Below, in pieces: positions 15,980 through 60,846 of a stretch of 60,889 nucleotides of DNA. The notes below the pieces were generated by a model, which did not search any database, was not told the DNA's origin, and saw only the letters and a program-made list of their open reading frames with translations. A program made the translations under genes and the position numbers. Position 1 is the first letter of the stretch. Each line of letters opens with the position of its first letter. The DNA comes from a virus (lineage: Duplodnaviria; Heunggongvirae; Uroviricota; Caudoviricetes), in IMG/VR virus record IMGVR_UViG_3300028833_000055, positions 302,446 through 363,334 of that record, one strand, 5' to 3'.

Positions 15980-16543
15980 CAAAAATCCATCGTATAAAAC
16001 ATAGTGTCCAACATCTGTTTGATTTCGTTGAAAACAAATTTAATAGTTGTATCCACCGTATAAAACATAGTGTCCAACATCTGACAACGGTTTTATAATT
16101 CCCTCTTTTTCGTTGTATTCACCGTATAAAACATAGTGTCCAACATCAGTTGAACCGTCTTTGCTGTGTGTCAGAGTGTTGTATCCACCGTATAAAACAT
16201 AGTGTCCAACATCAGGGTGTTTTTGGACTTCTATGCAATCCAAGTTGTATCCACCGTATAAAACATAGTGTCCAACATCCACGCCGTTACGACCTAAAAA
16301 GTCAGTTTCGTTGTATCCACCGTATAAAACATGGTGTCCAACATCCTTTCGGAAGGTTTCTCCTAGTTCTCCTTCGCTGTATCCACCGTATAAAACATAG
16401 TGTCCAACATCGCTGATATGCGTAACGCAGGACTTGAAGTCGTTGTATCCACCGTATAAAACATAGTGTCCAACATCAAGTTTTCCACCTTCTGCGATAT
16501 ACTTCTCGTTGTATCCACCGTATAAAACATAGTGTCCAACATC
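15980..16543 (-). CRISPR. CRISPR array: 36-bp repeat GATGTTGGACACTATGTTTTATACGGTGGATACAAC, 8 full repeats + 1 degenerate, 8 spacers of 30 bp
   Basis: Repeats start (+) at 16046, 16112, 16178, 16244, 16310, 16376, 16442, 16508; degenerate trailer 15980-16015; single SNPs in three repeats. Confidence 0.98.
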
Positions 16544-16571
16544 TTACTCTGTCTAATTTCTTTTATTCCAG

Positions 16572-18926: not shown

Positions 18927-18936
18927 AATCTGTTGT

Positions 18937-18968
18937 TTTTTTACAAAGATACTATTTATTTTCGAAAG
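18937..18968 (-). promoter_or_regulatory. promoter for cas gene/array
   Basis: TATCTTTG core 18944-18951, ~18 nt before ATG. Confidence 0.75.
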
Positions 18969-18971
18969 GAC

Positions 18972-18998
18972 AAAGAAAAACCGGAAAAAATTCCGGTT
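18972..18998 (-). terminator. metK terminator
   Basis: AACCGGAA-TTTT-TTCCGGTT then TTTCTTT. Confidence 0.65.
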
Positions 18999-19002
18999 CC
19001 CT

Positions 19003-20205
19003 CTATTCCATTTCGAAAATTTTTCTGATGTCTTCAACCAAATCCAAATCCTCCCACGGGAAGTACTTGATGCCGTCCTTCACATAGCTCTTCCTCCCGA
19101 AGTGTCCGTACTTGGCGGTCTCAAGATAAATCGGGTTGAGGAGGTTGAGCCTCGTTATCATACCGTGAGGCGTGAAGTCGATGTTCTCCATAAGGCGTCC
19201 GGCGATTTCTGCATCGCTCATTCCGATGTTGCACTTTCCGTGAGTGTCTATGAAGACCGAGAGGGGCTTGGCCATACCGATTGCATACGAGACCTGTATC
19301 GTAACCTCGTCCGCCACTCCGGCCGCCACAAGGTTCTTGGCCACGTATCTACAGAAGTAGGCCGCACTCCTGTCAACCTTCGACGGGTCCTTGCCCGAGA
19401 AGGCTCCGCCTCCGTGAGGACACTTGCCCCCGTAGGTGTCGACTATGATTTTTCTTCCGGTCAGACCGGTGTCCCCGTGAGGTCCGCCTATTACGAAGCG
19501 TCCGGTCGGGTTGATGAACAGCTTGAAGTCGTAGAACATATCCGAAATCCTCTTCGGAAGTTCCATCCTTACACAATGCAACGCTTCCTGAACCCAGTCA
19601 CCGAGAGCCTCGTTCGAAAGTTCCTCGCAGTGCTGCTGTGAGACGACTATGGTGTCTATCTTCTCGGGCTTGCCGTCTTCACCGTACTCTATAGTCACCT
19701 GTGACTTGGCGTCCGGTCTCAACCCGATTTCCGGATATCCCTTTCTCAGCCTTTCGAGCTGACGGAGTATCATATGGGAGAGCATTATTTCAAGTGGCAT
19801 GTACTCTATTCCGTCCTTGACTGCATATCCGAACATAATCCCCTGGTCTCCGGCACCCTGCATCTCCTCCTTCTGGCGGGACACGCCCATATTGATGTCG
19901 GGGCTCTGCTCGTGTATGGTGTTTATCACCGCACAGGAGTTTCCGTCGAAGTAGAGTTCACCGTTGTCGTAGCCGATGTCGTTGATGGTGTTACGCACCG
20001 TCTTCTGCAAGTCAACATACGCTTCGGCGGTAACTTCGCCCGAGATGACAACCAGTCCGGTCGTCACAAGTGTCTCACACGCCACGTGGGCGTTCTTGTC
20101 CTGTCTTATTATTTCATCCAGTACGGCGTCCGAAATCTGGTCGGCCACCTTGTCGGGATGACCCGATGAAACGGATTCCGACGTAAAATATCTCTTATCG
20201 CTCAT
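19003..20205 (-). CDS. metK: S-adenosylmethionine synthetase
   Basis: FTSESV..GHPDK, GAGDQG, GGGAFSGKDPSKVDRS. Confidence 0.98.
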   Translation of the reverse strand: MSDKRYFTSESVSSGHPDKVADQISDAVLDEIIRQDKNAHVACETLVTTGLVVISGEVTAEAYVDLQKTVRNTINDIGYDNGELYFDGNSCAVINTIHEQSPDINMGVSRQKEEMQGAGDQGIMFGYAVKDGIEYMPLEIMLSHMILRQLERLRKGYPEIGLRPDAKSQVTIEYGEDGKPEKIDTIVVSQQHCEELSNEALGDWVQEALHCVRMELPKRISDMFYDFKLFINPTGRFVIGGPHGDTGLTGRKIIVDTYGGKCPHGGGAFSGKDPSKVDRSAAYFCRYVAKNLVAAGVADEVTIQVSYAIGMAKPLSVFIDTHGKCNIGMSDAEIAGRLMENIDFTPHGMITRLNLLNPIYLETAKYGHFGRKSYVKDGIKYFPWEDLDLVEDIRKIFEME

Positions 20206-21307: not shown

Positions 21308-22315
21308 TTAGAACTTCCTTTTGATTATATCAACTGCAAACTTGCTGATTATCTTGTTGATAACCTTCTGTTCCGAAGAATCGAGCGAGTCGTATTCCGG
21401 ATGGTCACGCCTGAACTCGTCTATCGTGTCGATAGAGTATTCCTTCAGTACGAGACCTGTCTGCTTCGGCATCTCTATCTCTCCGAGATGTGAGATTACA
21501 TTGTTGAGCCTCGATTCGGTGCAGTAGTTTCCGACTTCCTCGATACACTTGTTGCAAGTATCCGAATAGACCGGAGCCTCCTTCGGCTTCTTGTCCTTCT
21601 TTTCGAATTCCTCGAACTTCGGGTTCTTGTTCTTGATGATGATTCTCTCACCGTTCGCCATAAAGAGCGGTTCGACCGGCTTGATGACAACGCCTTCTGC
21701 AAAGTTGTCCTCTATTTCCGGATAACCGAGTCTTGTACCTATCGTGCTGATGAACACCGGACTGTATGCAAGACATTCGTCAAGTGTGCCACGGAAAAGT
21801 TCCTTGTTGTAGAACAGTCCGGCATTTTCGAAAATCTCGTTGCACTTGTCAACGCCAATCCATTCAGATTTTCCGTCGGTGCCGGTCACCAGAATGTCGA
21901 AGGCGTAGAACATATGTTCGGGACAGTAGTCTATTCCCTTCTGTATCCTTGACTCATTTGTCTTGTAACCCTTGTATCCTCCTCCGAAGAACTCGCCGAA
22001 CATCTGTACGTTGTGTACCGGAGTGTCGTTATACACGGAGATGTATTTGAAGATACCGGTTATCTTTTCCTTGAGCATCTTCTCTGCGTATTCCTGAAAT
22101 CCGTAGAACTTTTCGTCCGGTTCGAGGATTGAAGACCTCTTGCCGGTTATTATGTTTTCCCCGTCCGTGATTACAGATACGTTGCATCCGTCGACTTTCT
22201 CCGAGACCGAGAACTTTGCGTCCTCACAACCGAAGTACTTGAGGGTTTCCCTTACGCTTTCAAGATACTTTTCCCTGTAGCTGTTCTCTATCGAACTGTA
22301 TTTCCTAAATTCCAT
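21308..22315 (-). CDS. RNA ligase, Rnl2 family
   Basis: YSSIEN, SEKVDGCN, FGEFFGG, FYAFDI, EGVVIKP, IIKNKN. Confidence 0.92.
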   Translation of the reverse strand: MEFRKYSSIENSYREKYLESVRETLKYFGCEDAKFSVSEKVDGCNVSVITDGENIITGKRSSILEPDEKFYGFQEYAEKMLKEKITGIFKYISVYNDTPVHNVQMFGEFFGGGYKGYKTNESRIQKGIDYCPEHMFYAFDILVTGTDGKSEWIGVDKCNEIFENAGLFYNKELFRGTLDECLAYSPVFISTIGTRLGYPEIEDNFAEGVVIKPVEPLFMANGERIIIKNKNPKFEEFEKKDKKPKEAPVYSDTCNKCIEEVGNYCTESRLNNVISHLGEIEMPKQTGLVLKEYSIDTIDEFRRDHPEYDSLDSSEQKVINKIISKFAVDIIKRKF

Positions 22316-47117: not shown

Positions 47118-48020
47118 TTAATCTTTTATGTTTTTCAATATGTGTGCAATCACATCCACAGTCCATCCGTTACCGAGAGCCCTCTTCGCTTGACTTTCAC
47201 TTATCGGTGATGTGTATCCGTCAGGCAGAGTCTGCAATCTTTCACATTCAGTCCTGTTCAGGTATCTCCAAGGGAGTTTTCTTCCGTTCAGACCGAAAGC
47301 GTCAACGTGTCTTCCAAACGGAAGAGGTGTCAAGACATTATCCTTCCCCACCGTAGTGAGACAGTTGACCTTCCTGTTGTTCGACTTTCTCACTTCAAGA
47401 CACTGTGTGATAGGTATCCCCTTGTTATAGTCCTGTCTGTGCCCGCTTCTGTCGAGTCTTCTGCCTACTATGGTCGCCTTGTGCAATTCGTCACCACCGA
47501 AGTCGTCACCATCGATGATGTCTTCAAGAAATATGTACCGGTCCTTCGGCTGTCCCACATTCGGTATGTTCGTCCAGTACAGTCTCACCCTGTTCTGGGC
47601 GGAGACAAGCGAACTGTTTATGCAAATCGGTTCCACTCCAAGATAATCCGTTATTATATCCTCGTGCTGTCTTTTCATCTTGACATTTTCAAGAAGAAAG
47701 TACTTCGGTTCGGCTTCCTTCAGAGCCCTTACGAACTCGAAGAACAATTTCGACCTCGGGTCGTTGAAGTTGAGACCTTTTCCGGCGGATGAAAATCCCT
47801 GGCAGGGACTTCCTCCCATCAGAATGTCATACCCCTTGAACTGGGTGAAGTCCGCTCCGACCACCGAACCGTGTTGTCTTATGTCGGGGTAGTTGGTGTT
47901 CGCCACCTTCATGGCGTTTTCATCTATTTCGAAAGAATCGTATGACTCGACATCGAACCCGCACCTTTCAAGTGCAACCCTTCCACAGGCTATTCCGTCA
48001 AATAAACTTAATATTTTCAT
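47118..48020 (-). CDS. DNA cytosine-C5 methyltransferase (paralog A)
   Basis: LSLFDG, GGSPCQGFS, LLENV, QNRVRLYW, ERLQT, LGNGW. Confidence 0.93.
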   Translation of the reverse strand: MKILSLFDGIACGRVALERCGFDVESYDSFEIDENAMKVANTNYPDIRQHGSVVGADFTQFKGYDILMGGSPCQGFSSAGKGLNFNDPRSKLFFEFVRALKEAEPKYFLLENVKMKRQHEDIITDYLGVEPICINSSLVSAQNRVRLYWTNIPNVGQPKDRYIFLEDIIDGDDFGGDELHKATIVGRRLDRSGHRQDYNKGIPITQCLEVRKSNNRKVNCLTTVGKDNVLTPLPFGRHVDAFGLNGRKLPWRYLNRTECERLQTLPDGYTSPISESQAKRALGNGWTVDVIAHILKNIKD

Positions 48021-48850
48021 TCTACAATGTTTTTCAATATGTGTGAAATCACATCCACAGTCCATCCGTTCCCAATCATCTTGTATCTGGCCGAATCACT
48101 CACACCTTCCGTATAGTTGTCCGGAAGTGTCTGCAACCTCTCACATTCAACCGGAGTAAGTCTCCTGTATCCACTTTCGGTAAAGTCACTCTTTACATAT
48201 GGACAATATGGAGGTTGTTTATAATATGACGCCAGAATAGGTTTAGATTTGCCTTCTAACGGACTTTCTTTCCAAGATGGATAAGATTTAAGGAAAGCGT
48301 CATAATGTCGTTTAGAAAGGGGATATGACCCCTTATCGTCTTCGAGGATGTCTTTCAGCAATATCCCACGGTCTTCCGGTAGTGTAATATCCGGTATGTT
48401 CGTCCAGTACAACCTCTGTCTGTTCTGGGCGGAAACCAAGTTACTGTTTATTAGTACCGGTTCCACTCCGAGATGTTCCGTAATGACCTTTTCGAAATTC
48501 TTCGGCATCTTTACGTTTTCAAGAAGAAAGTATTTCGGTTCGATTTCCTTCAGAGCCCTTACGAACTCGAAGAACAACACAGACCTTTCATCCTCGAAGT
48601 TAAGTCTTTCACCGGCGAAACTAAATCCCTGACAAGGACTTCCTCCCATCAGCAGGTCATACCCCTTGAAACGGGTGAAGTCCGCTCCGACCACCGAACC
48701 GTGCTGTATTATGTCCGGATAGTTCTTCAGACTTATCTTTATCGGGTCCTTCTCGATTTCAAACGCATCATATGTTTCCACATCGAACCCGCACCTTTCA
48801 AGGGCGACCCTGCCGCAACCCATTCCATCGAAAAGACTAATCACCTTCAT
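48017..48850 (-). CDS. DNA cytosine-C5 methyltransferase (paralog B)
   Basis: Same motifs, different variable region. Confidence 0.93.
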   Translation of the reverse strand: MKVISLFDGMGCGRVALERCGFDVETYDAFEIEKDPIKISLKNYPDIIQHGSVVGADFTRFKGYDLLMGGSPCQGFSFAGERLNFEDERSVLFFEFVRALKEIEPKYFLLENVKMPKNFEKVITEHLGVEPVLINSNLVSAQNRQRLYWTNIPDITLPEDRGILLKDILEDDKGSYPLSKRHYDAFLKSYPSWKESPLEGKSKPILASYYKQPPYCPYVKSDFTESGYRRLTPVECERLQTLPDNYTEGVSDSARYKMIGNGWTVDVISHILKNIVE

Positions 48851-49823
48851 ACCACAAATCAATATTGGTTTTTGACAACGGGGTGGCCGCCGAAGCACCA
48901 CAAGGAAATCCCATAAGGTATTCTGCATTTGTGGGGGTGGCCTTCTTGAAGACAGTGACAAAGTTTCTGCAACCCCGATGTTTCTGCATAGACGAACACG
49001 AATAGTTGGGTATTGTTACGGGTGTGGAGATGTATCCGAAATCCATTCCGTATGTCCTTTTTATCCACGAGTTTTTCACTTCAAAGACTTCCGATATTTC
49101 TTTCCGTGAAGCGGTCAGCGGACATTTGACATCCCTGATGTATCTGTTGACGAGTATACGGAAGGCGGTCGCCGCCACATATGGGGACTGTGCATTGCCG
49201 ACACCCCTCAACTGCTCGAACCTGTTTTCAACCGGAACGGTTTCACCGAAATGTTCCAAGTCGTTGTTCCACACTGAAGCCTTGAGTTTTTTCCATACCG
49301 ACAGATGTTGTGCTATCTTGTTGAACACATCGGTATCCTTGACACCGAGAAGCCAGAACCTGGTTCTTCTATGGTCTCCCCCGAGTTCACCGCAGGAAAG
49401 TTCGACGACCTGTGTGACATACCCGATGGACTCAAGGTCTTTTCTTGCCATCGTTATCGCCTTTGATGTAACATTCTCACCGAACACAACCGGAGCGTCC
49501 GATTCTTTTGCAAAACGGAACATCTCACCCCACAGGTTCTTGGATGATATGTTTCTTCCATGGGCGGCGTGTGAAAACGCCTGGCAAGGAAAACCCCCGC
49601 AAAGCACATCGAATGTCCCCTTGAATGAAGTCCCGTCCAGTTCGGTCAAGTCATCGTAAATTGGAAATTCGTTCATCCATCCGTCCTTCTGTCTCTGTAG
49701 CAGAACATCCTTGCAATGTTCGTCTATTTCAACGGCACCACTGCACTTGTGTCCGAGAAGTTTTCCGCCATATATTCCACCGCCTATACCGGCGAACAAG
49801 TGTAATTCCCTTATGTCTTCCAT
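48837..49823 (-). CDS. DNA cytosine-C5 methyltransferase (distinct clade)
   Basis: LFAGIGG, GGFPCQ, ENV, HRRTRFW, GNAQ, EYLMGFP. Confidence 0.88.
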   Translation of the reverse strand: MEDIRELHLFAGIGGGIYGGKLLGHKCSGAVEIDEHCKDVLLQRQKDGWMNEFPIYDDLTELDGTSFKGTFDVLCGGFPCQAFSHAAHGRNISSKNLWGEMFRFAKESDAPVVFGENVTSKAITMARKDLESIGYVTQVVELSCGELGGDHRRTRFWLLGVKDTDVFNKIAQHLSVWKKLKASVWNNDLEHFGETVPVENRFEQLRGVGNAQSPYVAATAFRILVNRYIRDVKCPLTASRKEISEVFEVKNSWIKRTYGMDFGYISTPVTIPNYSCSSMQKHRGCRNFVTVFKKATPTNAEYLMGFPCGASAATPLSKTNIDLWYEGD

Positions 49824-50543: not shown

Positions 50544-50960
50544 TTATCTCAAATCAAACAAATTACCTTGTCCTCTGTCTCCGTGTCTCCTTATCACGGA
50601 TATTCTCCAAGGAATAGCATGATAGAAGTTTCCACATTGTGTTTCAAGAGCCGAATTGCATACCTCACAAAGTCCGTGTCTCAATCTCCACGGTGTCCTG
50701 ACCTCCCTTCCACAACGGTAGCAATGGTTGTCAAGTTTCCTGACGAACCGTATGTGCAAGTCGGAATCGAATATCTCGTGCTTTCTGTTCTGGTGTCTTC
50801 TTCTTCCGAATATTTCTTCACGTCTCTGCAACCTGTTGAACTGGTCGAGTGTCAGATTGTCGTCTTCAAGAAACTCCATATCCGGAAGTCTCAACTCATC
50901 GTCTATCACGTTGTCACCGAAATCACGATGTTCGGTGAGGTCTATCTTTTGTGGAATCAT
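50544..50960 (-). CDS. hypothetical Zn-finger protein
   Basis: CYRC...LCEVC. Confidence 0.65.
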   Translation of the reverse strand: MIPQKIDLTEHRDFGDNVIDDELRLPDMEFLEDDNLTLDQFNRLQRREEIFGRRRHQNRKHEIFDSDLHIRFVRKLDNHCYRCGREVRTPWRLRHGLCEVCNSALETQCGNFYHAIPWRISVIRRHGDRGQGNLFDLR

Positions 50961-51748
50961 TTCTTGCTGAATACACTTCTAACCTTCTTGAAAAACCTCT
51001 TGACTGGATTACCGTTTGTCTTCTGGTATGTTGGAAGTGCAACCCTTTCATTCTCAATGGTAAGTGCATATCTGGAGTCTTCCGGCTTATTGTTCTCCTT
51101 GTATTCGTTCAAGATTGAAAGAAGTTCTTCGGCATCCTTCGGAATAGAAGTTGTCACCGTAGGATTTATGTTCTTTTTCTCCTTGTATTCGTTAATCATC
51201 TTGTCGAGGGTGAGGTCACAGTATTCATCAACCCAGTCTCCGAGGAAATAGAAGCGGTCGGCCACATTCGAGTTGTTTTTGAAAACACCGAAAAGAATGG
51301 GGTCCTTGTCCCTTCTTTCCTTTTCAACTTTTCTCTCTTCCTCGCCGGTATAGTCGGTAAATACGACATACATTTCGTCAAAGAGACCGTTGACCTTTTC
51401 TATTGTGTCAACAAGTTCATCGGGAATTTCCCTCATATACCTCGAAAGTTCTATAATCTTGACAGTCTGGTCGGCCACATTCTCGATATAGTCCTCGATG
51501 ACATCCTTATAGACGAATGTTGTGATACCCATCTCAATAAGTTTCTCTTCCTTTACAAGTGTCTCTGCAAGGAAACAGAGCTTTTTAAGGGATTCGACTT
51601 GCCCGAGTTTCTTATACTTCTCTGCAAGTTTAAGAAATACATCGAAAGAGTCATGGAGTGCTTTCGTGGTTATTGTTTTCTTCGCTTCCTTCAATGTGTC
51701 AAAATATTGACTCGGTGTAATCACCTTTTCGTTCTTATTGTCTTTCAT
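50957..51748 (-). CDS. conserved hypothetical phage protein
   Basis: 263 aa; KDPILFG, DWVDEYCDLT. Confidence 0.8.
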   Translation of the reverse strand: MKDNKNEKVITPSQYFDTLKEAKKTITTKALHDSFDVFLKLAEKYKKLGQVESLKKLCFLAETLVKEEKLIEMGITTFVYKDVIEDYIENVADQTVKIIELSRYMREIPDELVDTIEKVNGLFDEMYVVFTDYTGEEERKVEKERRDKDPILFGVFKNNSNVADRFYFLGDWVDEYCDLTLDKMINEYKEKKNINPTVTTSIPKDAEELLSILNEYKENNKPEDSRYALTIENERVALPTYQKTNGNPVKRFFKKVRSVFSKK

Positions 51749-52393: not shown

Positions 52394-52518
52394 GGTTGGC
52401 GGTGTATGACAGAGACAGCCTTCAGCACAAGAAAACTTTTAAATAGGCAGCCGTCCACTTCTCATCTTCTCGTTATTTGTCTATACTTTTCTTGTTTGTG
52501 TTCATACACCACTCAACC
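52394..52518 (-). ncRNA. rod-shaped candidate ncRNA
   Basis: GGTTG..GGTGTATGA/TCATACACC..CAACC and ACAAGAAAA/TTTTCTTGT helices. Confidence 0.45.
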
Positions 52519-52523
52519 GGGTG

Positions 52524-52609
52524 TGCCGGAGGTGGGACTCGAACCCACACGGGCATTACTGCCCAAAGGATTTTAAGTCCTTCGCGTCTACCAGTTCCGC
52601 CACTCCGAC
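52524..52609 (-). tRNA. tRNA-Leu(TAA)
   Basis: Long variable arm; CT-TAA-AA. Confidence 0.9.
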
Positions 52610-52613
52610 ATTG

Positions 52614-52742
52614 TGGGAGATGAAGGATTCGAACCTCCTAAGCCGAAAACGGCAACAGCTCCACTTGAGAACAGTTCGCTGGATGATTCTTTAACAAGAA
52701 TCTTATCTCTCTGTCCCAACTCTCCTACGTTGGCGCTCTCCC
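52614..52742 (-). tRNA. tRNA-like (Tyr-type body) with ACAGC-module insert; anticodon unresolved
   Basis: Acceptor, D, V and T arms intact; ~50-nt insert GATTCTT-GTTA-AAGAATC-AT-CCAGCGA. Confidence 0.6.
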
Positions 52743-52751
52743 TTGATTTTG

Positions 52752-52835
52752 TGCCGATGACAGGACTCGAACCTGTATGGGCTTTCGCCCGCCACATCCT
52801 GAATGTGGTGCGTCTACCAGTTCCGCCACACCGGC
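52752..52835 (-). tRNA. tRNA-Leu(CAG)
   Basis: TT-CAG-GA. Confidence 0.9.
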
Positions 52836-52844
52836 GATTTGTTG

Positions 52845-52928
52845 TGCCCAGGACAGGACTTGAACCTGCACGGGGATACCCCCACCAGCCCCTCAAGCTG
52901 GCGCGTCTACCAATTCCGCCACCTGGGC
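52845..52928 (-). tRNA. tRNA-Leu(GAG)
   Basis: TT-GAG-GG. Confidence 0.9.
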
Positions 52929-52932
52929 ATTG

Positions 52933-53005
52933 TTGAGTAGGAAGGATTCGAACCTTCAACTTTCTGATTCAGAGTCAGATGCTCTACCAATTGAACTACT
53001 ACTCA
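52933..53005 (-). tRNA. tRNA-Gln(CTG)
   Basis: CT-CTG-AA. Confidence 0.85.
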
Positions 53006-53013
53006 ATATTTTG

Positions 53014-53086
53014 CAGTGCCACCGGGACTCGAACCCGGATTTCCAGCTTGAGAGGCTGGCCTCCTAACCGGTTAGAGGATGGCACC
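53014..53086 (-). tRNA. tRNA-Glu(CTC)
   Basis: CT-CTC-AA. Confidence 0.85.
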
Positions 53087-53088
53087 AT

Positions 53089-53208
53089 TGGCAGAAGTGG
53101 AAGGAATCGAACCCTCATCTGTGGTTTTATTTTTACAAGTGAATTAAAGGCTCTCACAGGACCTTACTCTGTATGGAGACCACCATTCTACCATTGAACT
53201 ACACTTCT
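53089..53208 (-). tRNA. tRNA-Trp(CCA) with ~46-nt intron just 3' of the anticodon
   Basis: GTGGT-CT-CCA-[53128-53173]-AA-ACCAC; G73 and encoded CCA. Confidence 0.75.
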
Positions 53209-53214
53209 ATCTTG

Positions 53215-53292
53215 TAGGGAAATTGGGACTCGAACCCAAAGCTACACCTAATGGTTTCGGTGTCGGTTTATGTACCATTAACCTATTTCCCA
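53215..53292 (-). tRNA. pseudo-tRNA / tRNA-like (10-nt anticodon loop)
   Basis: Acceptor and T arm good; loop GAAACCATTA. Confidence 0.45.
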
Positions 53293-53321
53293 AAATACTT
53301 ATAAGTATAGTCTTTCGACCG

Positions 53322-53393
53322 TGGGTCAGGAGGGATTCGAACCCTCGACTCCCGCCTTAAAGGGGCGGTACTCTACCACTGAGTTACTGACCC
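53322..53393 (-). tRNA. tRNA-Lys(TTT) with C33
   Basis: CCGCC-CC-TTT-AA-GGCGG. Confidence 0.8.
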
Positions 53394-53709
53394 GTAAATA
53401 GGTTTTAATTCAAGTTTTTTTTAGTTTTTGTTCTGACCGGTGCCTTCCAAAACTTGTGCAGTGGTGTTACTGCTTTCATAAGGGATAACCTATAAAACCG
53501 CTTTTCATAAAAATACACCGGTTCCGGCCTTTGTTTAAACATTTGACAAGCTAATCAATTTCCTATTTGGGACACCACCCCCAAGAAGAAGTATTTTAGA
53601 GCTCATATTATTACTTCCCGACAAGGAATTTTCACTTATGTTCCGTGGAAAGCCACTACCACGAGTCTGAATTTTATGTCTTAGCGACCACCGACATTTT
53701 ATGTGTTTG

Positions 53710-53784
53710 CTCCAGAAGAGGGATTCGAACCCCCATCTCCGAGATTTTTACTCTCGACGGCTTCAGCCATTTGCCCATTCTGAA
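53710..53784 (-). tRNA. atypical tRNA, anticodon AAA (Phe?)
   Basis: CGAGA-GT-AAA-AA-TCTCG; good T arm. Confidence 0.5.
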
Positions 53785-53809
53785 TGTTCACCAACCGGAG
53801 TTGGTGTGT

Positions 53810-53887
53810 GGGTGAATGGTGGGACTCGAACCCACGACCTCTGGTTCCACAGACCAGCGCTCTAAAACCGACTGAGCTACATACACC
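53810..53887 (-). tRNA. tRNA-His(GTG)
   Basis: CT-GTG-GA; encoded G-1 and C73. Confidence 0.9.
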
Positions 53888-54015
53888 ATAATATTTTACA
53901 GAACCAAGTCGCTATCTCGGAATGGATGTTTCTATACCTTGGGGACCACAGCTACTCACCTTCCGTCAGCCTTTCGGCTTACTCAAACAGCACCATTGTC
54001 TTTCGACTTCTGTAG

Positions 54016-54101
54016 TGGGAGAGGAGGGATTCGAACCCCCTGTGTATCTTACGTAACGGATTTACAGTCCGCCGCCACTCCACCATCGTAGCCGCTCTCC
54101 C
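54016..54101 (-). tRNA. tRNA-Tyr(GTA)
   Basis: CT-GTA-AA, long V arm. Confidence 0.85.
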
Positions 54102-54140
54102 GTTCAAACTTATTTTAACCATCCAGTATGTCAAAGAACC

Positions 54141-54170
54141 TTTTTTGCAAAGATACTATATTTTTTTCTT
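54141..54170 (-). promoter_or_regulatory. promoter within tRNA array
   Basis: TATCTTTG core 54148-54155. Confidence 0.65.
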
Positions 54171-54197
54171 TCTGCAAAGAAAAATTTAATTTTTTTG

Positions 54198-54270
54198 TGA
54201 CCTCGGTGGGACTCGAACCCACAACCTTCTGATTAAGAGTCAGAAGCTCTACCAGTTGAGCCACGAGGTC
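54198..54270 (-). tRNA. tRNA-Lys(CTT)
   Basis: CT-CTT-AA. Confidence 0.9.
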
Positions 54271-54387
54271 ATTGACTCATAACAAAAAATGGGGTGCTCT
54301 ACCACTATTAGCACCAATGTTTCATTTTAGTCACCCGCCAAATAGAAACTTCAATCTAAAAGATTGTGGAAATGCTTGCATTATAAG

Positions 54388-54515
54388 TGCAGACGACAGG
54401 ACTCGAACCTGTAACCCATATGGGAGCGGTTTGAACCCGAAAACTTGCTGTCCAATTCTTTATCAAGAATCTGTTGATATTGGACCGCCGTGTTTACCAA
54501 TTCCACCACATCTGC
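54388..54515 (-). tRNA. tRNA-Leu-type body with ACAGC-module insert (probable anticodon CAA)
   Basis: Leu D-arm GTGGAATTGGTAAACAC; insert GATTCTT-GATA-AAGAATT-GG-ACAGCAA; TTCAAA before 3' stem. Confidence 0.6.
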
Positions 54516-54527
54516 AATTTTCTCCGG

Positions 54528-54612
54528 TGTACCGATGGTAGGACTCGAACCTACACGGACTTTCGTCCACCTGTTCCTAAAACAGGCGTGTCTACCATTC
54601 CACCACACCGGC
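54528..54612 (-). tRNA. tRNA-Leu(TAG)
   Basis: TT-TAG-GA. Confidence 0.88.
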
Positions 54613-54617
54613 GTTTG

Positions 54618-54792
54618 TGGAGTTATACAGATTCGAACTTCGTCTTCCAAACATCCTCCAATGTTCCTTTGTCGTATGTGAGGTCTGACGAAAAGGTAAA
54701 AAGTTTTATAAAACCTCTGTTCCCGCTCCCGTAACAACTGTGGCCACAACTGTTACGGCCGGCTTCCAGCCCGTTTAAGCGACCTTAACCCC
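54618..54792 (-). ncRNA. Ala-acceptor (G3:U70) tRNA-like / mini tmRNA-like RNA
   Basis: GGGGTTA/TAACTCC-A acceptor, TTCGAAT loop, ~140-nt interior. Confidence 0.45.
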
Positions 54793-54801
54793 GTTTTTTT
54801 G

Positions 54802-54872
54802 AGCGGATGATGGGAATCGAACCCACACATCCAGCTTGGAAGGCTGGCATACTACCGTTGTACTACACCCGC
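54802..54872 (-). tRNA. tRNA-Gly(TCC)
   Basis: CT-TCC-AA. Confidence 0.9.
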
Positions 54873-54878
54873 ATATCG

Positions 54879-54963
<85 letters not shown>

Positions 54964-55072
54964 ATATAAAGGTCGGGGTTTCGTATCAATCTTACTCGAG
55001 TACTACGCCGATTGAGTGTTATCCCCTGGATAGACTTTTTCCAGTGTATACTTCCGGAGTCTATCTTTAATG

Positions 55073-55147
55073 TGGGATTCCAGGGAGTTGAACCCCAGCC
55101 TCTGGATTTTCAGTCCAGCGTACAATAACCACCTATACGAGAATCCC
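55073..55147 (-). tRNA. tRNA-Phe(GAA)
   Basis: CT-GAA-AA. Confidence 0.85.
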
Positions 55148-55381
55148 AAAATATCCGGTTATTTTTACATCCACCGGAAGTAGTAGTACCGTATGGAGAA
55201 ACCTAATTAAAACAAGACATCTCCTTCCCGCTTCACAGAACCACCGCTTTTTAGGTTGCTTACACAACGGTCATCCACTGTCGGGTTCTCCACGGGCTTG
55301 AATTCGGCGGTACGGCCGCCTATTGTCCGGATTGTCAACCTTTAACACAATGTCCGGACATTGTGACACTCTTGTGTTTTG

Positions 55382-55456
55382 TGGGTAGAGAAGGACTCGA
55401 ACCTTCGACCTCATGCGTATCAGGCATGCGTTCTAAACCAACTGAACTACCTACCC
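55382..55456 (-). tRNA. tRNA-Ile(GAT) with C38
   Basis: CT-GAT-AC. Confidence 0.8.
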
Positions 55457-55461
55457 AAGTG

Positions 55462-55535
55462 TGGACACAGATGGGACTCGAACCCATGACACCCTGCTTG
55501 CAAGGCAGGCGTTCTTCCAACTGAACTACTGGCCC
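55462..55535 (-). tRNA. tRNA-Ala(TGC)
   Basis: CT-TGC-AA. Confidence 0.88.
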
Positions 55536-55542
55536 AGATATG

Positions 55543-55617
55543 TGCGGGATGATGGATTCGAACCAACGACCCCCTGCTTGTAAGGCAGATACTCTGAACC
55601 AACTGAGCTAATCCCGC
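55543..55617 (-). tRNA. tRNA-Val(TAC)
   Basis: CT-TAC-AA. Confidence 0.9.
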
Positions 55618-55699
55618 ATAAAGGAGAGTTTTATCGTAAACTCTCAACCTAAACCGTCCGACATACGGAAGGAAAGTGATATCGGCTTTCCTATATTTG

Positions 55700-55773
55700 T
55701 GCCGGTGGAAGGACTCGAACCTTCGTCTCCGCCTTATGAGAGCGGCGCAAGAAACCACCTCCGCCACACCGAC
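55700..55773 (-). tRNA. tRNA with CAT anticodon (Met or Ile2)
   Basis: CT-CAT-AA. Confidence 0.8.
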
Positions 55774-55779
55774 ATTTTG

Positions 55780-55902
55780 TTGGGAGGGCAGGACTCGAAC
55801 CTGCGACCACTGCTTTATCAGAGCAATTAGAAAAAGGTTCGCTGTTCGATTCTTTCACAAGAATCTTTTCATATAGTGCTCTACCCACTGAGCTACCTCC
55901 CA
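55780..55902 (-). tRNA. tRNA-Ile(GAT) with 50-nt ACAGC-module insert at 28/29
   Basis: Removing 55825-55874 gives CTGCT-CTGATAA-AGCAG. Confidence 0.75.
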
Positions 55903-55904
55903 AG

Positions 55905-55976
55905 TTGTCCCGGAGGGACTCGAACCCCCAGCCCACAGAACCAAAATCTGTTGTGCTACCATTGCACCACGGGACA
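55905..55976 (-). tRNA. tRNA-Gln(TTG)
   Basis: TT-TTG-GT. Confidence 0.9.
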
Positions 55977-56209
55977 TCGTATAATAAAAAATCCCACACT
56001 TTCTTGTGAATGTGTGAGATGTTGGATATTATCGAGATAAACCGGTTTTGGATTCAAAATTTATACAATTCTACACTCACACGAGATATATGCAAAGAGG
56101 ACGAGTAACGCCTGATAAAACCAGCGATACATCCCGCACTTAATCTCAATATGTTGTTTTATTGCATTCATTTCTCTTTTATTTATGAAAATTATTTTTC
56201 GAAAATTTT

Positions 56210-56284
56210 TGGAGCGGGAGATGGGACTCGAACCCACGACCTGAACCATGGCAAGGTCCCGTTCTACCACTGAACTACTCCCGC
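56210..56284 (-). tRNA. tRNA-Gly(GCC)
   Basis: TT-GCC-AT, encoded CCA. Confidence 0.9.
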
Positions 56285-56481
56285 ATTAAGCGGCTTTCCG
56301 TCCCTACTAACCTAAATTTCAAGACGGCATTATCTAACGGTGTGAAACAACAGTCTGCATTATATTTATTCGTCGACAGCACAGACTATGTTTGCCGCTT
56401 ACAAAATATCACCGGATGGTTTATTTTAACGTCTTAACATTAAACCACCAAAGACGAGTTGCCCGTTTAGGCGGACTACTG

Positions 56482-56603
56482 CTGCTACAACCGGACTCGA
56501 ACCGGTGTATGGGATTTATAACACTACCTTTACCAGTATACCCACAGGGCGTCCCGAAATAAATTCTACTGCGTCCTTGCTTGCCAATCTTGCATATGTA
56601 GCA
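56482..56603 (-). ncRNA. enlarged tRNA-like RNA
   Basis: TGCTACA/TGTAGCA acceptor and perfect T arm around a non-canonical core. Confidence 0.5.
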
Positions 56604-56681
56604 TAAAAAGTTGTCACCCAAATGTCCGCTTCACAGCAGGTGAAACAGTGACATAGTTTCTTTGGCGTAAGAATAAAACAT

Positions 56682-56776
56682 TGAGACCACTGTTGGAGTT
56701 GAACCAACAAGGGAGGCATACCACGGAGGTTTAGTCCTCGTTATGTGCCGTTTACCGACACTTCCTCAGCAGTTTC
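56682..56776 (-). ncRNA. non-canonical tRNA-like RNA (long acceptor, 6-bp D stem)
   Basis: GTGTCG-GTAAA-CGGCAC and GTTGG-TTCAACT-CCAAC. Confidence 0.4.
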
Positions 56777-56830
56777 AGGAACCCGTCCATCCACCGCCTT
56801 CTTTACCTAATTTGAATAAGTGGTCAAATT

Positions 56831-57349
56831 CTATTTCCAAGTTATACGCTTGTACTCACCGTTCTCACCCCTGTAACCGAAAGCGAAATTGTTCGGTTCA
56901 AGTTCCACGAGTTCATCGAGAACATATTTCCTGTACTTTTTCGCCATCCCTTTCTTCATATAGGCTATGGTCATATGAGGATGATAACTGTATTCGGTGT
57001 GCATTTCGAAATTCCTGCCGATTTCCGAATTTGTTTCAACCATCTGTTCCGATGATATGGAACACTTCAACACATCGTATTCTTCATTTTCGAAAATACT
57101 TATGTCCGTTATTCTCGCCTTGTACTCCTCTAACGGTTTCAACACTTTCTTCAACTCTTTGAGCAGACCCAAGTCATTTTCAAGACAAGGTGCAAGTGTT
57201 ACGTGTGATTCCGTTTCAAGTCCGTATTCGGCATCGTCATCGAGGTCTTCCGAAAAATATAGTTCGTCCTTCGGTATCCTTTCTTGCAATCGTAAGATTA
57301 ATTTCGGCATCTTGAAATCAATCATTAAAAATGAATATCTCTCTTCCAT
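56831..57349 (-). CDS. 2H phosphoesterase, Acb1/T4 gp57B-like (candidate anti-CBASS)
   Basis: Two HxT motifs (SHVTL, PHMTIAY); tRNA-array location. Confidence 0.78.
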   Translation of the reverse strand: MEERYSFLMIDFKMPKLILRLQERIPKDELYFSEDLDDDAEYGLETESHVTLAPCLENDLGLLKELKKVLKPLEEYKARITDISIFENEEYDVLKCSISSEQMVETNSEIGRNFEMHTEYSYHPHMTIAYMKKGMAKKYRKYVLDELVELEPNNFAFGYRGENGEYKRITWK

Positions 57350-57365
57350 AAGAAAAAAAATTATG

Positions 57366-57438
57366 TCGGAGTAGCTGGATTCGAACCAGCGACCACTTGG
57401 TCCCGAACCAAGTATTCTCCCAACTGAACTACACCCCG
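57366..57438 (-). tRNA. tRNA-Pro(CGG)
   Basis: TT-CGG-GA. Confidence 0.9.
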
Positions 57439-57452
57439 AAATTTAATTTAAG

Positions 57453-57525
57453 TCGGGGTAGCAGGACTCGAACCTGCGACCCCCTGGTCCCAAACCAGGT
57501 GTTCTGCCAACTAAACTACACCCCG
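57453..57525 (-). tRNA. tRNA-Pro(TGG)
   Basis: TT-TGG-GA. Confidence 0.9.
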
Positions 57526-57940
57526 AAAAAAAAATCCAAAGCGAAGTGAAAAACCGGTACCCACACAACCGGACATTGACCATTTCCGAGGGAATGATTT
57601 TTTGATTCCAGTGAAATCAAGGACTAACCATTTGGAGTGTTTTCACTCCCGCCCTCACTTTGGGAAGACATTCTCTTAATAATTTCCCCTTCCAGCAGTC
57701 TTCGATACTGGTCGTAGTAGTCTGTTCGGTTTCATCTTCACGGTGATGAACGAGACAACTTCTTCCGTGTGTTTCCGACTTGAGACTGTTATAGGACAGT
57801 CATCGGAGTTTCGATGGTCTCCGTACCCATATTAAATGAGTGTAACCGGGCCGGAGGCAATTATCCATATATAATACCACGACTTCTCTCCCTATACTCT
57901 CCGGATGATAATTCCGAACCCTATTCCTCGTGATATTCTG

Positions 57941-58014
57941 TGGACCCCGTGGGACTCGAACCCACAACATTCTGCGTGCAAGGCAGACGCTCTACCAATT
58001 GGAGCTAGGAGCCC
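57941..58014 (-). tRNA. tRNA-Ala(TGC)
   Basis: CT-TGC-AC. Confidence 0.88.
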
Positions 58015-58070
58015 ATTTTTAACACGGTTAACCGAAAACCCCCTATAACAGTTCTGTCGTCCGTTTTATA

Positions 58071-58162
58071 CAAGGTTCATTTTTACCGGAATAAGTGTTT
58101 TTCGGTGAACCGTGTTGATTTGCAATCAGAATCTTTATTCGGTGATTGCTGTAAGAACCTTT
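58071..58162 (-). ncRNA. ACAGCAA stem-loop small RNA (skipping-rope-like)
   Basis: AAGGTTC-TT-ACAGCAA...GAACCTTG. Confidence 0.6.
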
Positions 58163-58175
58163 ACGGACTCCATAG

Positions 58176-58248
58176 AGCCGGAGGAGGGAGTCGAACCCAC
58201 AACCTTCTGATTACAAATCAGATGCAACTACCATTGTGCTACTCCGGC
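58176..58248 (-). tRNA. tRNA-Thr(TGT)
   Basis: TT-TGT-AA. Confidence 0.9.
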
Positions 58249-58254
58249 ATTTTG

Positions 58255-58327
58255 CGGGGACAGTAGGATTCGAACCTACGACCTACTGGTTAACAGCCAG
58301 TTGCTCTACCTATTGAGCTATGTCCCC
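58255..58327 (-). tRNA. tRNA-Asn(GTT)
   Basis: CT-GTT-AA. Confidence 0.9.
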
Positions 58328-58569
58328 AAGAAATCGTTAGTCCGTAAGAACTAATATGTGGCAAAAGACCTGTTTTACTGGCGTCACAGAACTCCGTACT
58401 CCGTGTACGGTATGTTAATGTAATATATTTCAAGCCATCTTACCATTGCATGCCCACAGTAAGCACTCTCAAAAATTACTTCTATCTACTCAATATTCAA
58501 CTCTCCGGGTCATGACTCCAAATCCTTGTACATCTTTCAAATAAGTCAGAACTTACACCAATCTTTTAG

Positions 58570-58643
58570 CGGTGCGTATGGGACTCGAACCCATGACCCT
58601 CGGCGTGACAGGCCGATATTCTAACCAGCTGAACTAACGCACC
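58570..58643 (-). tRNA. tRNA-Asp(GTC)
   Basis: CT-GTC-AC. Confidence 0.9.
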
Positions 58644-58691
58644 AGACAAATATTTGTCATTATTTATGTTTTTTCAAAAAGGAAAAATTTA

Positions 58692-58758
58692 CAAGGTTCT
58701 TCGATACTTTTAGAAACCCAAATTCTACGTTGTCAAAAGATTTGCTGTTTGAACCTTT
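58692..58758 (-). ncRNA. ACAGCAA stem-loop small RNA (skipping-rope-like)
   Basis: AAGGTTC-AA-ACAGCAA...GAACCTTG. Confidence 0.6.
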
Positions 58759-58775
58759 AATGACTATTTTTCCTA

Positions 58776-58863
58776 TGGCGGAGAGTAAGGGACTCGAACC
58801 CCTGCCACAACGAGGTGGGCTTCAGATTAGCAATCTGACCAGTTACCACTCCTGCAACTCTCC
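58776..58863 (-). tRNA. tRNA-Ser(GCT)
   Basis: TT-GCT-AA, long V arm, CCA. Confidence 0.88.
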
Positions 58864-59003
58864 AAACTAACTCGGAACTATCCGGATTAGTACGCAATTT
58901 CGCATTAGTAAAACATTGTGGTCTTTTACACCACTCCATACCGGTATGGCTATAACCAAGCGGGCTTGCTAGTCACATACAATTCCGAGTTAAATCGGTT
59001 TTG

Positions 59004-59076
59004 TGAGCACAGCAGGATTCGAACCTGCAACTTACGGCTTAGAAGGCCGTTATTCTTCCAATTGAATTATGCGCCC
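59004..59076 (-). tRNA. tRNA-Arg(TCT)
   Basis: CT-TCT-AA. Confidence 0.88.
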
Positions 59077-59292
59077 ATAGATGTTATGGTTGCAACAAAA
59101 CCGTAACCAGTTTTCCATACTTGTTTTTCGGTAAGCGACTTTTCCGATGTACCTTCTCTTACAAGGGTGATGAATCTATTTAAGGTTCACCTTCCTTTTC
59201 CGTTCTGCAATCCTCTGTTTAAACCTAATTCTCATAGATGCCGTGTCACCACGGTGTGAGTTCACAACTAGTACGATTTCATAACATCTTTG

Positions 59293-59411
59293 CTGGGAGG
59301 ACAGGACTCGAACCTGCGACCACGGTCTTAAAAGGACTGAATAAATGTATCGCGTTTGATTCTTTTGCAAGAATCCCAAAATACGTGCTCTACCAACTGA
59401 GCTACCTCCCA
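59293..59411 (-). tRNA. tRNA-Lys(TTT) with 46-nt ACAGC-type insert at 28/29
   Basis: Removing 59338-59383 gives CGGTC-CTTTTAA-GACCG. Confidence 0.75.
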
Positions 59412-59427
59412 ATTTGATATATTCTTT

Positions 59428-59517
59428 TGGCGGAGGGGGAGGGATTCGAACCCCCGGACCCCGTTAGAGGTCAACGGTTTTCAAGACCGCCGCAATCAGC
59501 CACTCTGCCACCCCTCC
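59428..59517 (-). tRNA. tRNA-Ser(TGA)
   Basis: CT-TGA-AA, CCA. Confidence 0.9.
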
Positions 59518-59643
59518 AAATGAAAGATTGATTGAAATAACCCCGTTCAATCTTTCGAAAACGTGCCGACCTACGATTCGGATGCCGAGTTTGACTGATG
59601 TCAGGGACTAGCACATCTTCGTTCCCTTGTACTTCGGGCTAAT

Positions 59644-59721
59644 TGGTAGCGGAAGCCGGACTCGAACCGGCGTGGAACGGCTTATGAGACCGTGCTGGGA
59701 CCATCTCCAGTCTATTCCGCA
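59644..59721 (-). tRNA. tRNA-Met(CAT), initiator-like (1:72 mismatch)
   Basis: CT-CAT-AA, CCA. Confidence 0.75.
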
Positions 59722-59731
59722 ATATATTTTT

Positions 59732-59874
59732 GACATTACGACCGGACTCGAACCGGCAGTACCTATATGTTTGTGATATAGGGCAACTTTTACGTCCCAC
59801 TCCCAGGACTTCCATCTGGCTGCTCACAACAGCAGTTACAGGCGAGGGTTTACCAATTCCCCTTCACATAATGT
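59732..59874 (-). ncRNA. enlarged tRNA-like RNA with 8-bp acceptor and GTG-loop hairpin
   Basis: ACATTATG/CGTAATGT, D-loop AATTGGTAAA, T arm; GCTG-TTGTGAG-CAGC inside. Confidence 0.5.
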
Positions 59875-59880
59875 TCTTTT

Positions 59881-59953
59881 GTGATACGACACGACTCGAA
59901 CGTGCATCACCCTGCTTCCCGCTCGGGTGTCCTAACCGTTAGACGACGTATCT
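59881..59953 (-). tRNA. pseudo-tRNA (Glu-type body, aberrant anticodon arm)
   Basis: GTCTAACGGTTAGGAC D arm; anticodon arm mispaired. Confidence 0.45.
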
Positions 59954-60002
59954 GGCCTCCTGTTAGCTACTCAAAAGACCAATAAAAGTACTTTTAAACC
60001 AG

Positions 60003-60077
60003 CACTCCCGACGAGACTCGAACTCGTAATCTCCGCCGTGAAGGGGCGGTGTCCTAACCTATTAGACGACAGGAGCA
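60003..60077 (-). tRNA. tRNA-Glu(TTC) with C33
   Basis: CCGCC-CC-TTC-AC-GGCGG. Confidence 0.8.
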
Positions 60078-60084
60078 TATTATG

Positions 60085-60156
60085 TAGCTCGACCAAGAAT
60101 CGAACTTGAATCTGTGGTTTAGGAAACCACTGTTCTATCCGTTGAACTATCAAGCC
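60085..60156 (-). tRNA. tRNA-Arg(CCT)
   Basis: TT-CCT-AA. Confidence 0.88.
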
Positions 60157-60230
60157 ATATCGAGAGTTTCTTTTCACTCCCAAGCCACTACCTTATCTTT
60201 TTGTCTTGTCGTAAGTTCGGAAACGACAAT

Positions 60231-60679
60231 TTATTCACAATTTGCATCTTCGTTATTTATGAGATGTCCATCTTTATCCAATTTTATCAATCCGGCATGT
60301 ATTTCTCTGTGGCAATTTGAACAAACCAATATACACTTATCCAATTCAGATTTAACGTGTTCAAAAGATTTAGTTCCACCACTAATCGAAAAATCCTTTT
60401 CTTCTGGATTTATATGATGAAAATCTAATGCGTCAATACATTTACAATATCCACATATTTGACATTTTCCACCTTTATAATCAACAAGTTTTTGCTTTAT
60501 GTCTCTTCTATATTTCCTTGTATCTCTTCTTCTATTTGTTCTTAATCTATTCTTATTTTTGAATATTAAAAAACCTTTTAGTGTATTGTATGAAATATGA
60601 GATATTTTTGCAACTTTTTTACATTTCCTATTTTATTATACAATTCTTGTAACTCTTCTTTTTGTTTTTCTGTTACCAT
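60231..60679 (-). CDS. HNH endonuclease requiring a -1 frameshift (programmed shift or pseudogene)
   Basis: ATG at 60679; a -1 shift at A_AAA_AAG (60614-60620) joins it to GGKCQICGY...LDFHH...CILVCSNCHREIH. Confidence 0.75.
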
Positions 60680-60699
60680 TAGAATTTAATTTTATTTTG

Positions 60700-60776
60700 T
60701 TGGGGTGGTGGGGGTTGAACCCACGTGCAACCAACTACCCTTTCGACAGTTTATAAGACTGAGGGGATACACCCCA
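60700..60776 (-). ncRNA. rearranged tRNA-like RNA (TAT anticodon, no D arm in normal position)
   Basis: TGGGGTG/CACCCCA acceptor, CAGT-CTTATAA-ACTG arm, T arm GTGGG-TTCAACC-CCCAC. Confidence 0.55.
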
Positions 60777-60784
60777 AAAAATTA

Positions 60785-60846
60785 CAAGGTTCTTAAACAC
60801 AATTAACAATTTTGATTTGTTTGATATTATTGCTGTATGAACCTTT
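60785..60846 (-). ncRNA. ACAGCAA stem-loop small RNA (skipping-rope-like)
   Basis: AAGGTTC-AT-ACAGCAA...GAACCTTG. Confidence 0.6.

Follow-up and report, generated by a model that had tools for sequence, protein, structure and literature searches.

Short inserts in phage tRNA genes and the known classes of tRNA intron

To our knowledge, the only introns thought to occur in the tRNA genes of bacteria and their viruses are self-splicing ones of group I or, rarely, group II, protein-dependent tRNA splicing being regarded as a trait of archaea and eukaryotes. Group I introns measure ~200 nt or more, are found in the anticodon loop and possess a catalytic core with conserved helices P3-P8. Bulge-helix-bulge (BHB) tRNA introns carry two 3-nt bulges with a 4-bp helix between them at the splice sites, and are processed by an EndA-type endonuclease together with RtcB (or Trl1/Tpt1). 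We analysed a stretch of 60,889 nt, hereafter the window, which forms the final 61 kb of a 363-kb caudoviricete record (IMG/VR IMGVR_UViG_3300028833_000055, positions 302,446 to 363,334; completeness 96% by CheckV estimate) and in which a first-pass annotation made from the sequence alone had pointed to four tRNA genes sharing one inserted RNA module. The claim of a shared module stands, as its hairpin is found exactly four times in the genome, each time within a tRNA-like body, and the inserts measure 46-53 nt. Judged from their sequences, the insert-bearing genes are best explained as working phage tRNA genes of one paralog family in which the anticodon stem is usually interrupted between positions 28 and 29 (28/29). 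We tentatively propose that the inserts are intervening sequences of a new, protein-dependent class that enzymes excise from phage tRNAs, a proposal to which we give somewhat less than an even chance. The phenomenon is not confined to the window, but extends far beyond it to related rumen megaphages.

Like group I introns, the inserts interrupt tRNA genes of the bacterial and phage world and leave a restored tRNA upon removal; they differ in being only 46-60 nt long among all copies found, in lying in the stem and in having no Rfam match. A group I intron was rejected on these grounds, in agreement with the first-pass annotation, the window inserts giving no Rfam intron match at E<=10 when searched alone. 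With the group I route impossible, a conserved and covarying stem insert of ~50 nt that is under selection implies either a cut-and-rejoin pathway not described so far or tRNAs with a built-in extra domain. Archaeal BHB introns at non-canonical positions are also small, are spliced by proteins as we propose for the present inserts, may sit in stems including the anticodon stem and give a perfect cloverleaf on removal, but the present host is bacterial. Inspection of the flanks and of minimum-energy folds revealed no bulge-helix-bulge at the two splice sites, and a BHB intron was rejected for want of this motif and of any EndA-family or RtcB gene in four phage genomes. Rfam has no family for the module, either in the array (E<=1) or in the insert alone and the free-standing copies described below (E<=10).

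Introns described as ‘enigmatic’ have been reported in the tRNA genes of Lak megaphages (Devoto et al., 2019; PMC6784885). Those listed in Table S6 of that study (PMC6784885) lie in the anticodon loop just after the anticodon, are 79-93 nt long, start with an ACAG-loop-CTGT hairpin and in many cases finish with a T-arm-like element, and no ACAGCA or ACAGCG motif is present among the introns listed there. Both the Lak introns and the present inserts are short and highly conserved, cannot be of group I, have neither a match in Rfam nor a known mechanism, and are located in tRNA genes of gut megaphages of Bacteroidales hosts. Measured against the listed Lak introns, however, our four inserts, located in the 5' strand of the anticodon stem, are a class of their own, and a Lak-type intron was rejected for them because they are positioned at 28/29 (or 28-32) and begin with TA. 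We found no paper describing this 28/29 insert class. The window does contain a fifth split tRNA spanned by the Rfam tRNA model, tRNA-Trp(CCA) at 53092-53208 (minus strand, CCA encoded), with a different, Lak-like insert of ~46 nt that follows directly on the anticodon and starts with an ACAG-loop-CTGT hairpin. The Trp insert is conserved in a related genome, G002 (134129-134267), and the tRNA-Tyr of another, G001 (147764-147940), has a 92-nt insert of the same Lak-like kind.

The inserts and selection on the split tRNAs

ARAGORN identifies 36 tRNA genes at 51.7-60.2 kb, all on the minus strand, and because the two record ends repeat each other this array continues at the record start, where tRNA-Thr, transfer-messenger RNA (tmRNA) and tRNA-Leu(CAA) are located. 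The module shared by the four minus-strand tRNA-like genes consists of a 7-bp hairpin (stem S) with a GNNA loop, two bases, and the heptamer ACAGCGA or a variant of it (ACAGCAA, CCAGCGA, ACGCGA). This hairpin pattern has exactly four zero-mismatch matches in the window, where shuffles give 3.4 +/- 2.3 loose matches, four in the whole 363-kb genome and none in a reversed-pattern control. All four lie inside the tRNA-like bodies at 52614-52750, 54388-54520, 55780-55903 and 59293-59411, and the Rfam tRNA model extends end to end over three of these (43.6-49.9 bits), leaving only the 52614 copy unmatched.

In tRNA-Ile(GAU) (55780-55903, minus strand; 49.9 bits over model positions 1-71) a 50-nt insert occupies 55825-55874 at 28/29 (27/28 also fits, the boundary sliding by one base), with the module core at 55839-55865 comprising stem S and its GNNA loop (55848-55865), 2 nt and ACAGCGA (55839-55845). 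In tRNA-Lys(UUU) (59293-59411, minus strand; 45.8 bits) a 46-nt insert is found at 59338-59383, likewise at 28/29, with the core variant ACGCGA at 59350-59355. Direct reading of the sequence confirmed the first-pass statement that deletion of these two segments restores perfect anticodon arms, each having a 5-bp stem, with the loops CTGATAA (GAU) and CTTTTAA (UUU) respectively. As marks of a functional tRNA after insert removal we used a covarying cloverleaf, a 7-nt anticodon loop with U33 and a purine at position 37, and identity elements fitting the anticodon; these are found in the Ile and Lys copies and in 17 relatives, are doubtful in the 54388 copy and are not found in the 52614 copy.

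The 54388 copy is a Leu-bodied (class II) tRNA (54388-54520, minus strand; hairpin 54454-54471, core 54445-54451; Rfam 43.6 bits) with an intact 5' stem strand, in which the cut site is ambiguous between 28/29 and 31/32 because a 3-base repeat is present at both insert ends. The first-pass annotation had pointed to TTCAAA in this copy and to CAA as the only common Leu isoacceptor otherwise missing from the window. The argument that the copy supplies a missing isoacceptor fails, since a tRNA-Leu(CAA) is encoded just past the window end (G000:1341-1427). The module is present in the copy, and the loop after cutting is non-canonical, reading UCA or a defective CAA. In the G002 ortholog of the Leu-bodied copy a clean CAA loop is restored, with the insert after position 30-31. 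The remaining gene, which is tRNA-like with a long variable arm (52614-52750, minus strand; hairpin 52685-52702, core CCAGCGA 52676-52682), has no deletion that restores a canonical anticodon arm.

In most copies the insert starts with TA; 7-11 mostly A/U bases then lead up to stem S, two further bases and the heptamer, after which a U-rich tail, 10-18 bases long, stops before a G. Compensatory replacement of stem S is complete, no fewer than five distinct stem sequences being able to pair, among them that of one copy with a wholly different stem and an 8-nt loop. Exon positions 26-28 and the first intron bases can pair with the bases directly after the core heptamer, and the 5' cut site is probably placed in a short helix beside this conserved element; the helix recurs in the copies, yet beats shuffles in the Gln copies only, where 9-16 of 300 shuffles do as well as its 6 bp or better. 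By eye, the U-rich tail could be paired with the D-arm in some copies only, and no base beside the 3' site is conserved except the following G. An antisense-target role for the heptamer was rejected, its complement not being enriched in the genome.

Pattern scans of IMG/VR and of metagenome contigs, and tRNA searches of three related megaphage records (185-361 kb), provided a set of 19 distinct insert-bearing tRNAs made up of the window Ile and Lys copies and 17 relatives, Leu-bodied copies being left out. Represented are Pro(UGG, GGG), Gln(UUG), Asp(GUC), Lys(UUU), Ile(GAU) and Thr(GGU), plus one G003 copy without an assigned loop. The insert is located at 28/29 in 16 of the 19, which come from several phages; one Lys copy has it at 29/30 with identical flanking bases, and in the Leu-bodied copies it lies three or four bases further on. 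When the 19 are aligned across the insert, 97.2% of cloverleaf cells are paired, compared to 85% in shuffles and 39-55% with partners slid, and in 21 of 28 cloverleaf pairs both partners change, including each of the three pairs in the lower anticodon stem. In a strain variant from a cattle run (X3), reconstructed from difference tables, pair 31:39 of the Lys copy is G:C instead of C:G and the Lys loop is unaltered. The anticodon loops of insert-bearing copies are canonical 7-mers, and identity elements read from the alignment fit the anticodon, with C1:G72 and A73 in the Pro copies and G73, G10 and C38 in the Asp copies. Conservation of the insert position and compensatory pairs in related phages, which the first-pass annotation had named as the signs to look for, are therefore both present, the latter in the hairpin as well as in the split stem. 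Together, the compensatory changes and fitting acceptor ends indicate that the insert-bearing copies are tRNAs under selection and not wrecks.

With the insert removed, these tRNAs are 67-86% identical to one another and 62-82% identical to the same-anticodon insert-less tRNAs of the same genomes. Their greater mutual likeness puts them in a single paralog family in which the insert was retained while the anticodons changed, and it follows that the conserved insert position is partly a matter of common descent. A junction-pattern search of IMG/VR returned no insert-less allele of this tRNA family, the matches being unrelated tRNAs with a UAU anticodon loop. Among 185,579 prokaryote species genomes (one per species) the pattern had 39 scattered single matches, about as many as we estimate for chance, and none of them in a tRNA or in an array.

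Permuted free-standing copies of the module

Going beyond the first-pass annotation, we found permuted free-standing mini-RNAs with an anticodon-arm-like hairpin, tandem arrays of the module in AT-rich contigs, and insert-less isoacceptor twins of the split tRNAs. Four free-standing copies are present in the window and about a dozen in relatives, and in all of them the module is circularly permuted, the order being the 3' half of S, two bases, the heptamer, 34-98 variable bases, the 5' half of S and G. An A preceding S and a G following S are kept in both forms; in the tRNA form these two bases open and close the tetraloop. Where neighbouring free-standing copies differ in their stems, each copy pairs within itself and not with the next, indicating that both permutations are real. 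The window copies are all on the minus strand. The one at 60785-60845 lies 6 nt after a tRNA, and its stem halves enclose the core, a linker and a hairpin of 5 bp with a 7-nt loop; that at 58692-58757 has an internal hairpin whose loop is the tRNA-Pro(UGG) anticodon loop; a 91-nt copy (58071-58161) comes just after tRNA-Thr; and the fourth (12270-12332) lies outside the tRNA array, nested in an outer stem and followed by a T-run.

A perfect hairpin of 5 bp with a 7-nt loop stands 8-19 nt past the heptamer in 12 of 16 free-standing copies (24% of shuffles), and loops with U33 and purine 37 are found in 6 of the 16 (4.9% of shuffles), some being identical to anticodon loops of Lys, Pro and Ile tRNAs. 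The anticodon arm of the host tRNA is found at an equal distance after the heptamer in the tRNA form, so that the unit resembles stem S, heptamer, linker and an anticodon-type arm, and the split tRNAs look like a tRNA body joined onto the module's anticodon-type arm. On another phage contig (L199:10229-10312) a free-standing copy overlaps an ARAGORN-called tRNA-Ile(GAU), with the heptamer ACAGCAA serving as the acceptor 5' strand of that call and the module stem competing for the same 3' strand.

The free-standing copies make a module with its own function more plausible, a notion akin to the extra protein-binding arm put forward in the first-pass annotation. One form of it, which we consider unlikely though it is the main rival of excision, is that the insert always stays in the RNA, as an add-on scaffold (stem S and ACAGCRA) that holds or masks the anticodon stem-loop of a tRNA-shaped molecule. 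Such an RNA could be a decoy or shield against host anticodon nucleases, a carrier of a protein-binding arm or a regulated reserve tRNA, and the free-standing copies would be its minimal version, comprising the scaffold and an anticodon-arm mimic. The frequency of anticodon-type hairpins and loops past the heptamer and the equal spacing of the host arm speak for this explanation; it also accommodates the insert-less twin of each copy compared and the covariation of the split stem, which is equally compatible with an unspliced three-way junction. A pure decoy, on the other hand, would not need the full aminoacylation identity sets, U33 and purine 37 that are kept. RNA contigs, which show unspliced forms only, agree with an insert that stays in place, but such data cannot reveal rare or small spliced products. 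The sequencing runs containing this DNA are sheep and cattle gut metatranscriptomes; contigs of four of these span all four copies (52400-60800) in unspliced form, but assembled contigs drop rare forms and may contain DNA, and so weigh neither for nor against splicing. No insert-skipping joint occurs among the 15 of 70 contig joints listed for the assembled contigs of the same four metatranscriptomes.

Circularly permuted forms occurring in nature are characteristic of hammerhead and twister ribozymes, and the two natural permutations of the module raise the prospect of a small ribozyme cleaving at or near the 5' splice site, rejoining being accomplished by the reverse reaction or by phage heal-and-seal enzymes. 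A conserved unpaired heptamer beside a conserved helix, a 5' splice site able to pair next to the core, and phage kinase, phosphoesterase and ligase genes suited to cyclic-phosphate ends would fit such an activity. However, one small conserved core would have to make two cuts, there is no conservation in the strand facing this core, and the 3' site has no conserved base bar the G that follows. Moreover, cmscan found no match to known ribozymes (hammerhead, twister, pistol, hatchet, hairpin, hepatitis delta virus-like) in the array, the insert alone or the free-standing copies, and we regard a ribozyme as improbable.

Tandem arrays of the module were found in metagenome contigs (L221:3074-3660, L177, L201:4835-5280, L242, L210, L170) and consist of 7-11 units of hairpin and ACAGCAA, each followed by a T-run, with a period of 52-55 nt. 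The contigs are AT-rich (23-33% G+C), and their open reading frames (ORFs) need TAG as a sense codon. One array is directly 3' of a tRNA-Leu and several are upstream of the gene for a protein of 680-710 aa that weakly matches vWA; further neighbours include Hsp70, DUF3522 and a weak EF1G-domain match. A search of GenBank phages gave nothing similar to either the window or the AT-rich arrays.

The tandem arrays, the single orientation of all copies, the defective appearance of two window copies and the 7-bp terminal inverted repeats of the free-standing copies, mostly with TA on both flanks, would suit a selfish DNA-level element, namely a tiny inverted-repeat sequence that inserted in tRNA genes and left decaying pseudogenes backed by intact twins. 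Decay is difficult to reconcile with the compensatory changes and kept identity elements in 19 diverged copies, which signify continued selection on the tRNA, or with stem halves that change together with pairing kept. In addition, no empty-site allele was found in IMG/VR and no target duplication has been added at 28/29, making a selfish element the most improbable of the explanations considered. Both it and the ribozyme are less likely than enzymatic excision or a scaffold that is never removed.

RNA-processing genes and the possible removal of the insert

Phages are known to repair tRNAs, as in T4 where Pnkp and Rnl1/Rnl2 counter anticodon nucleases by mending anticodon-loop damage, and Rnl2-type ligases seal nicks in duplex RNA. 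Just beyond the array are genes for a CCA-adding enzyme, an RNA ligase (PF09414, G000:3255-3911), a calcineurin-type metallophosphoesterase and an AAA_33 kinase, all conserved in genomes G000-G002, as is a 515-aa protein on the same array flank with an OB domain of the PHA02142 family, whose members we take to be putative RNA ligases following their annotation. The Rnl2 ligase invoked in the first-pass annotation is present as well, in the form of a 335-aa Rnl2-type RNA ligase gene at 21308-22315 (minus strand; phrog_548, 2.3e-60), which is a candidate sealer of an anticodon-stem nick. A 2H phosphoesterase (LigT-like; PF13563, 1.3e-9) is encoded within the tRNA array at 56831-57349 (minus strand), but only in this phage and a near-identical contig, and is therefore probably not essential to the inserts. 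Together these genes make up a full set for the healing and sealing of broken RNA. As in T4-type repair, a phage tRNA cluster is accompanied by genes for a kinase, a phosphoesterase and ATP-dependent RNA ligases; the difference is that T4 repairs anticodon-loop damage, while the present genes are candidates for the joining step only and no T4 Rnl1-type ligase was found. Since such kits are ordinary equipment against anticodon nucleases, the gene context is permissive and not diagnostic.

If the insert is excised as we propose, protein enzymes would remove it from the RNA, with a putative host or phage endonuclease using the module and the tRNA body as its landmark. Excision at 28/29 would leave a nick inside the anticodon-stem duplex, which is the geometry sealed by Rnl2-type ligases and makes the Rnl2-type enzyme a candidate for this step. 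One of the phage's ATP-dependent RNA ligases could then close the nick, following healing of the ends by the kinase and phosphoesterase should the cuts leave a cyclic phosphate and a 5'-OH. The ribosome contacts the anticodon stem where a 50-nt arm at 28/29 would sit, suggesting that decoding needs the insert to be removed. The interpretation given in the first-pass annotation, conditional splicing or an added arm, is on the whole partly supported.

Several observations weigh against excision. Two of the four window copies (54388 and 52614) give no canonical arm, and the distances from the module to the splice sites vary (7-11 nt and 10-18 nt), so the module is no simple ruler. An insert-less isoacceptor twin is present in the same genome for all five copies compared (Ile, Lys, Pro, Gln, Asp), from which it follows that decoding does not obviously require the insert-bearing tRNAs, and the occurrence of the same module outside tRNAs, both free-standing and in arrays, suggests a function of its own. 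There is also no nuclease candidate: EndA, RNase III and RtcB were not found in the four phage genomes, nor were Tpt1 and T4 Rnl1. At the level of protein families PF01974, PF01139 and PF01885 are absent from these genomes, whereas in a Bacteroides thetaiotaomicron control RtcB was found and EndA was not.

A fuller version of the excision proposal, which we put forward as a doubtful scheme, would join the split tRNAs and the mini-RNAs in one system. The portable module would single out the 5' strand of the anticodon stem to be cut twice and the phage duplex-nick ligase would reseal the stem, the free-standing mini-RNA with its anticodon-arm mimic would interact with the same enzyme or with a host anticodon nuclease, and the intron-bearing tRNAs would be a protected or conditionally released reserve set. 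Were this scheme correct, it would represent a tRNA splicing route of rumen megaphages not described before. Outside damage repair, the split tRNAs may also give phage Rnl2-type ligases and end-healing enzymes a natural substrate, and the compact RNA motif defined here in two natural permutations is directly testable at the bench.

Two further ORFs adjoin the tRNA genes. A 227-aa ORF between tmRNA and tRNA-Leu(CAA) (G000:631-1314, L127) has an N-terminus resembling a lipoprotein signal peptide, as read from the consensus, and belongs to a widespread family of >200 uncharacterised proteins, several on contigs >100 kb, with no Pfam match; it was rejected as a nuclease candidate. A 263-aa ORF next to the array (50957-51748, minus strand) matches PHROG 10081 (phrog_10081, ‘transposase’; 1e-75). 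It was set aside, nothing in Pfam, NCBIfam or PDB matching it and the arrays of relatives lacking it on their flanks. Within the array, a tRNA-like gene at 53214-53292 (minus strand; Rfam tRNA 41.8 bits) has an over-long anticodon loop for which ARAGORN gives the four-base anticodon ACCA. A tRNA-Phe with an AAA anticodon is located at 53709-53784 (minus strand) in addition to the normal GAA copy at 55072-55147, an unmodified A34 being unusual.

Elsewhere in the window, a clustered regularly interspaced short palindromic repeats (CRISPR) array at 16000-16560 (minus strand) has ten full repeats of ~36 nt and a degenerate terminal copy, and adjoins an 821-aa ORF (16572-19037). Mimicry of CRISPR repeats by the module was rejected, the phage's own repeat being unrelated to the hairpin. 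Three adjacent genes for C5 cytosine DNA methylases are found at 47118-49823 (minus strand), and a fourth is located near the genome start (G000:16144-17325).

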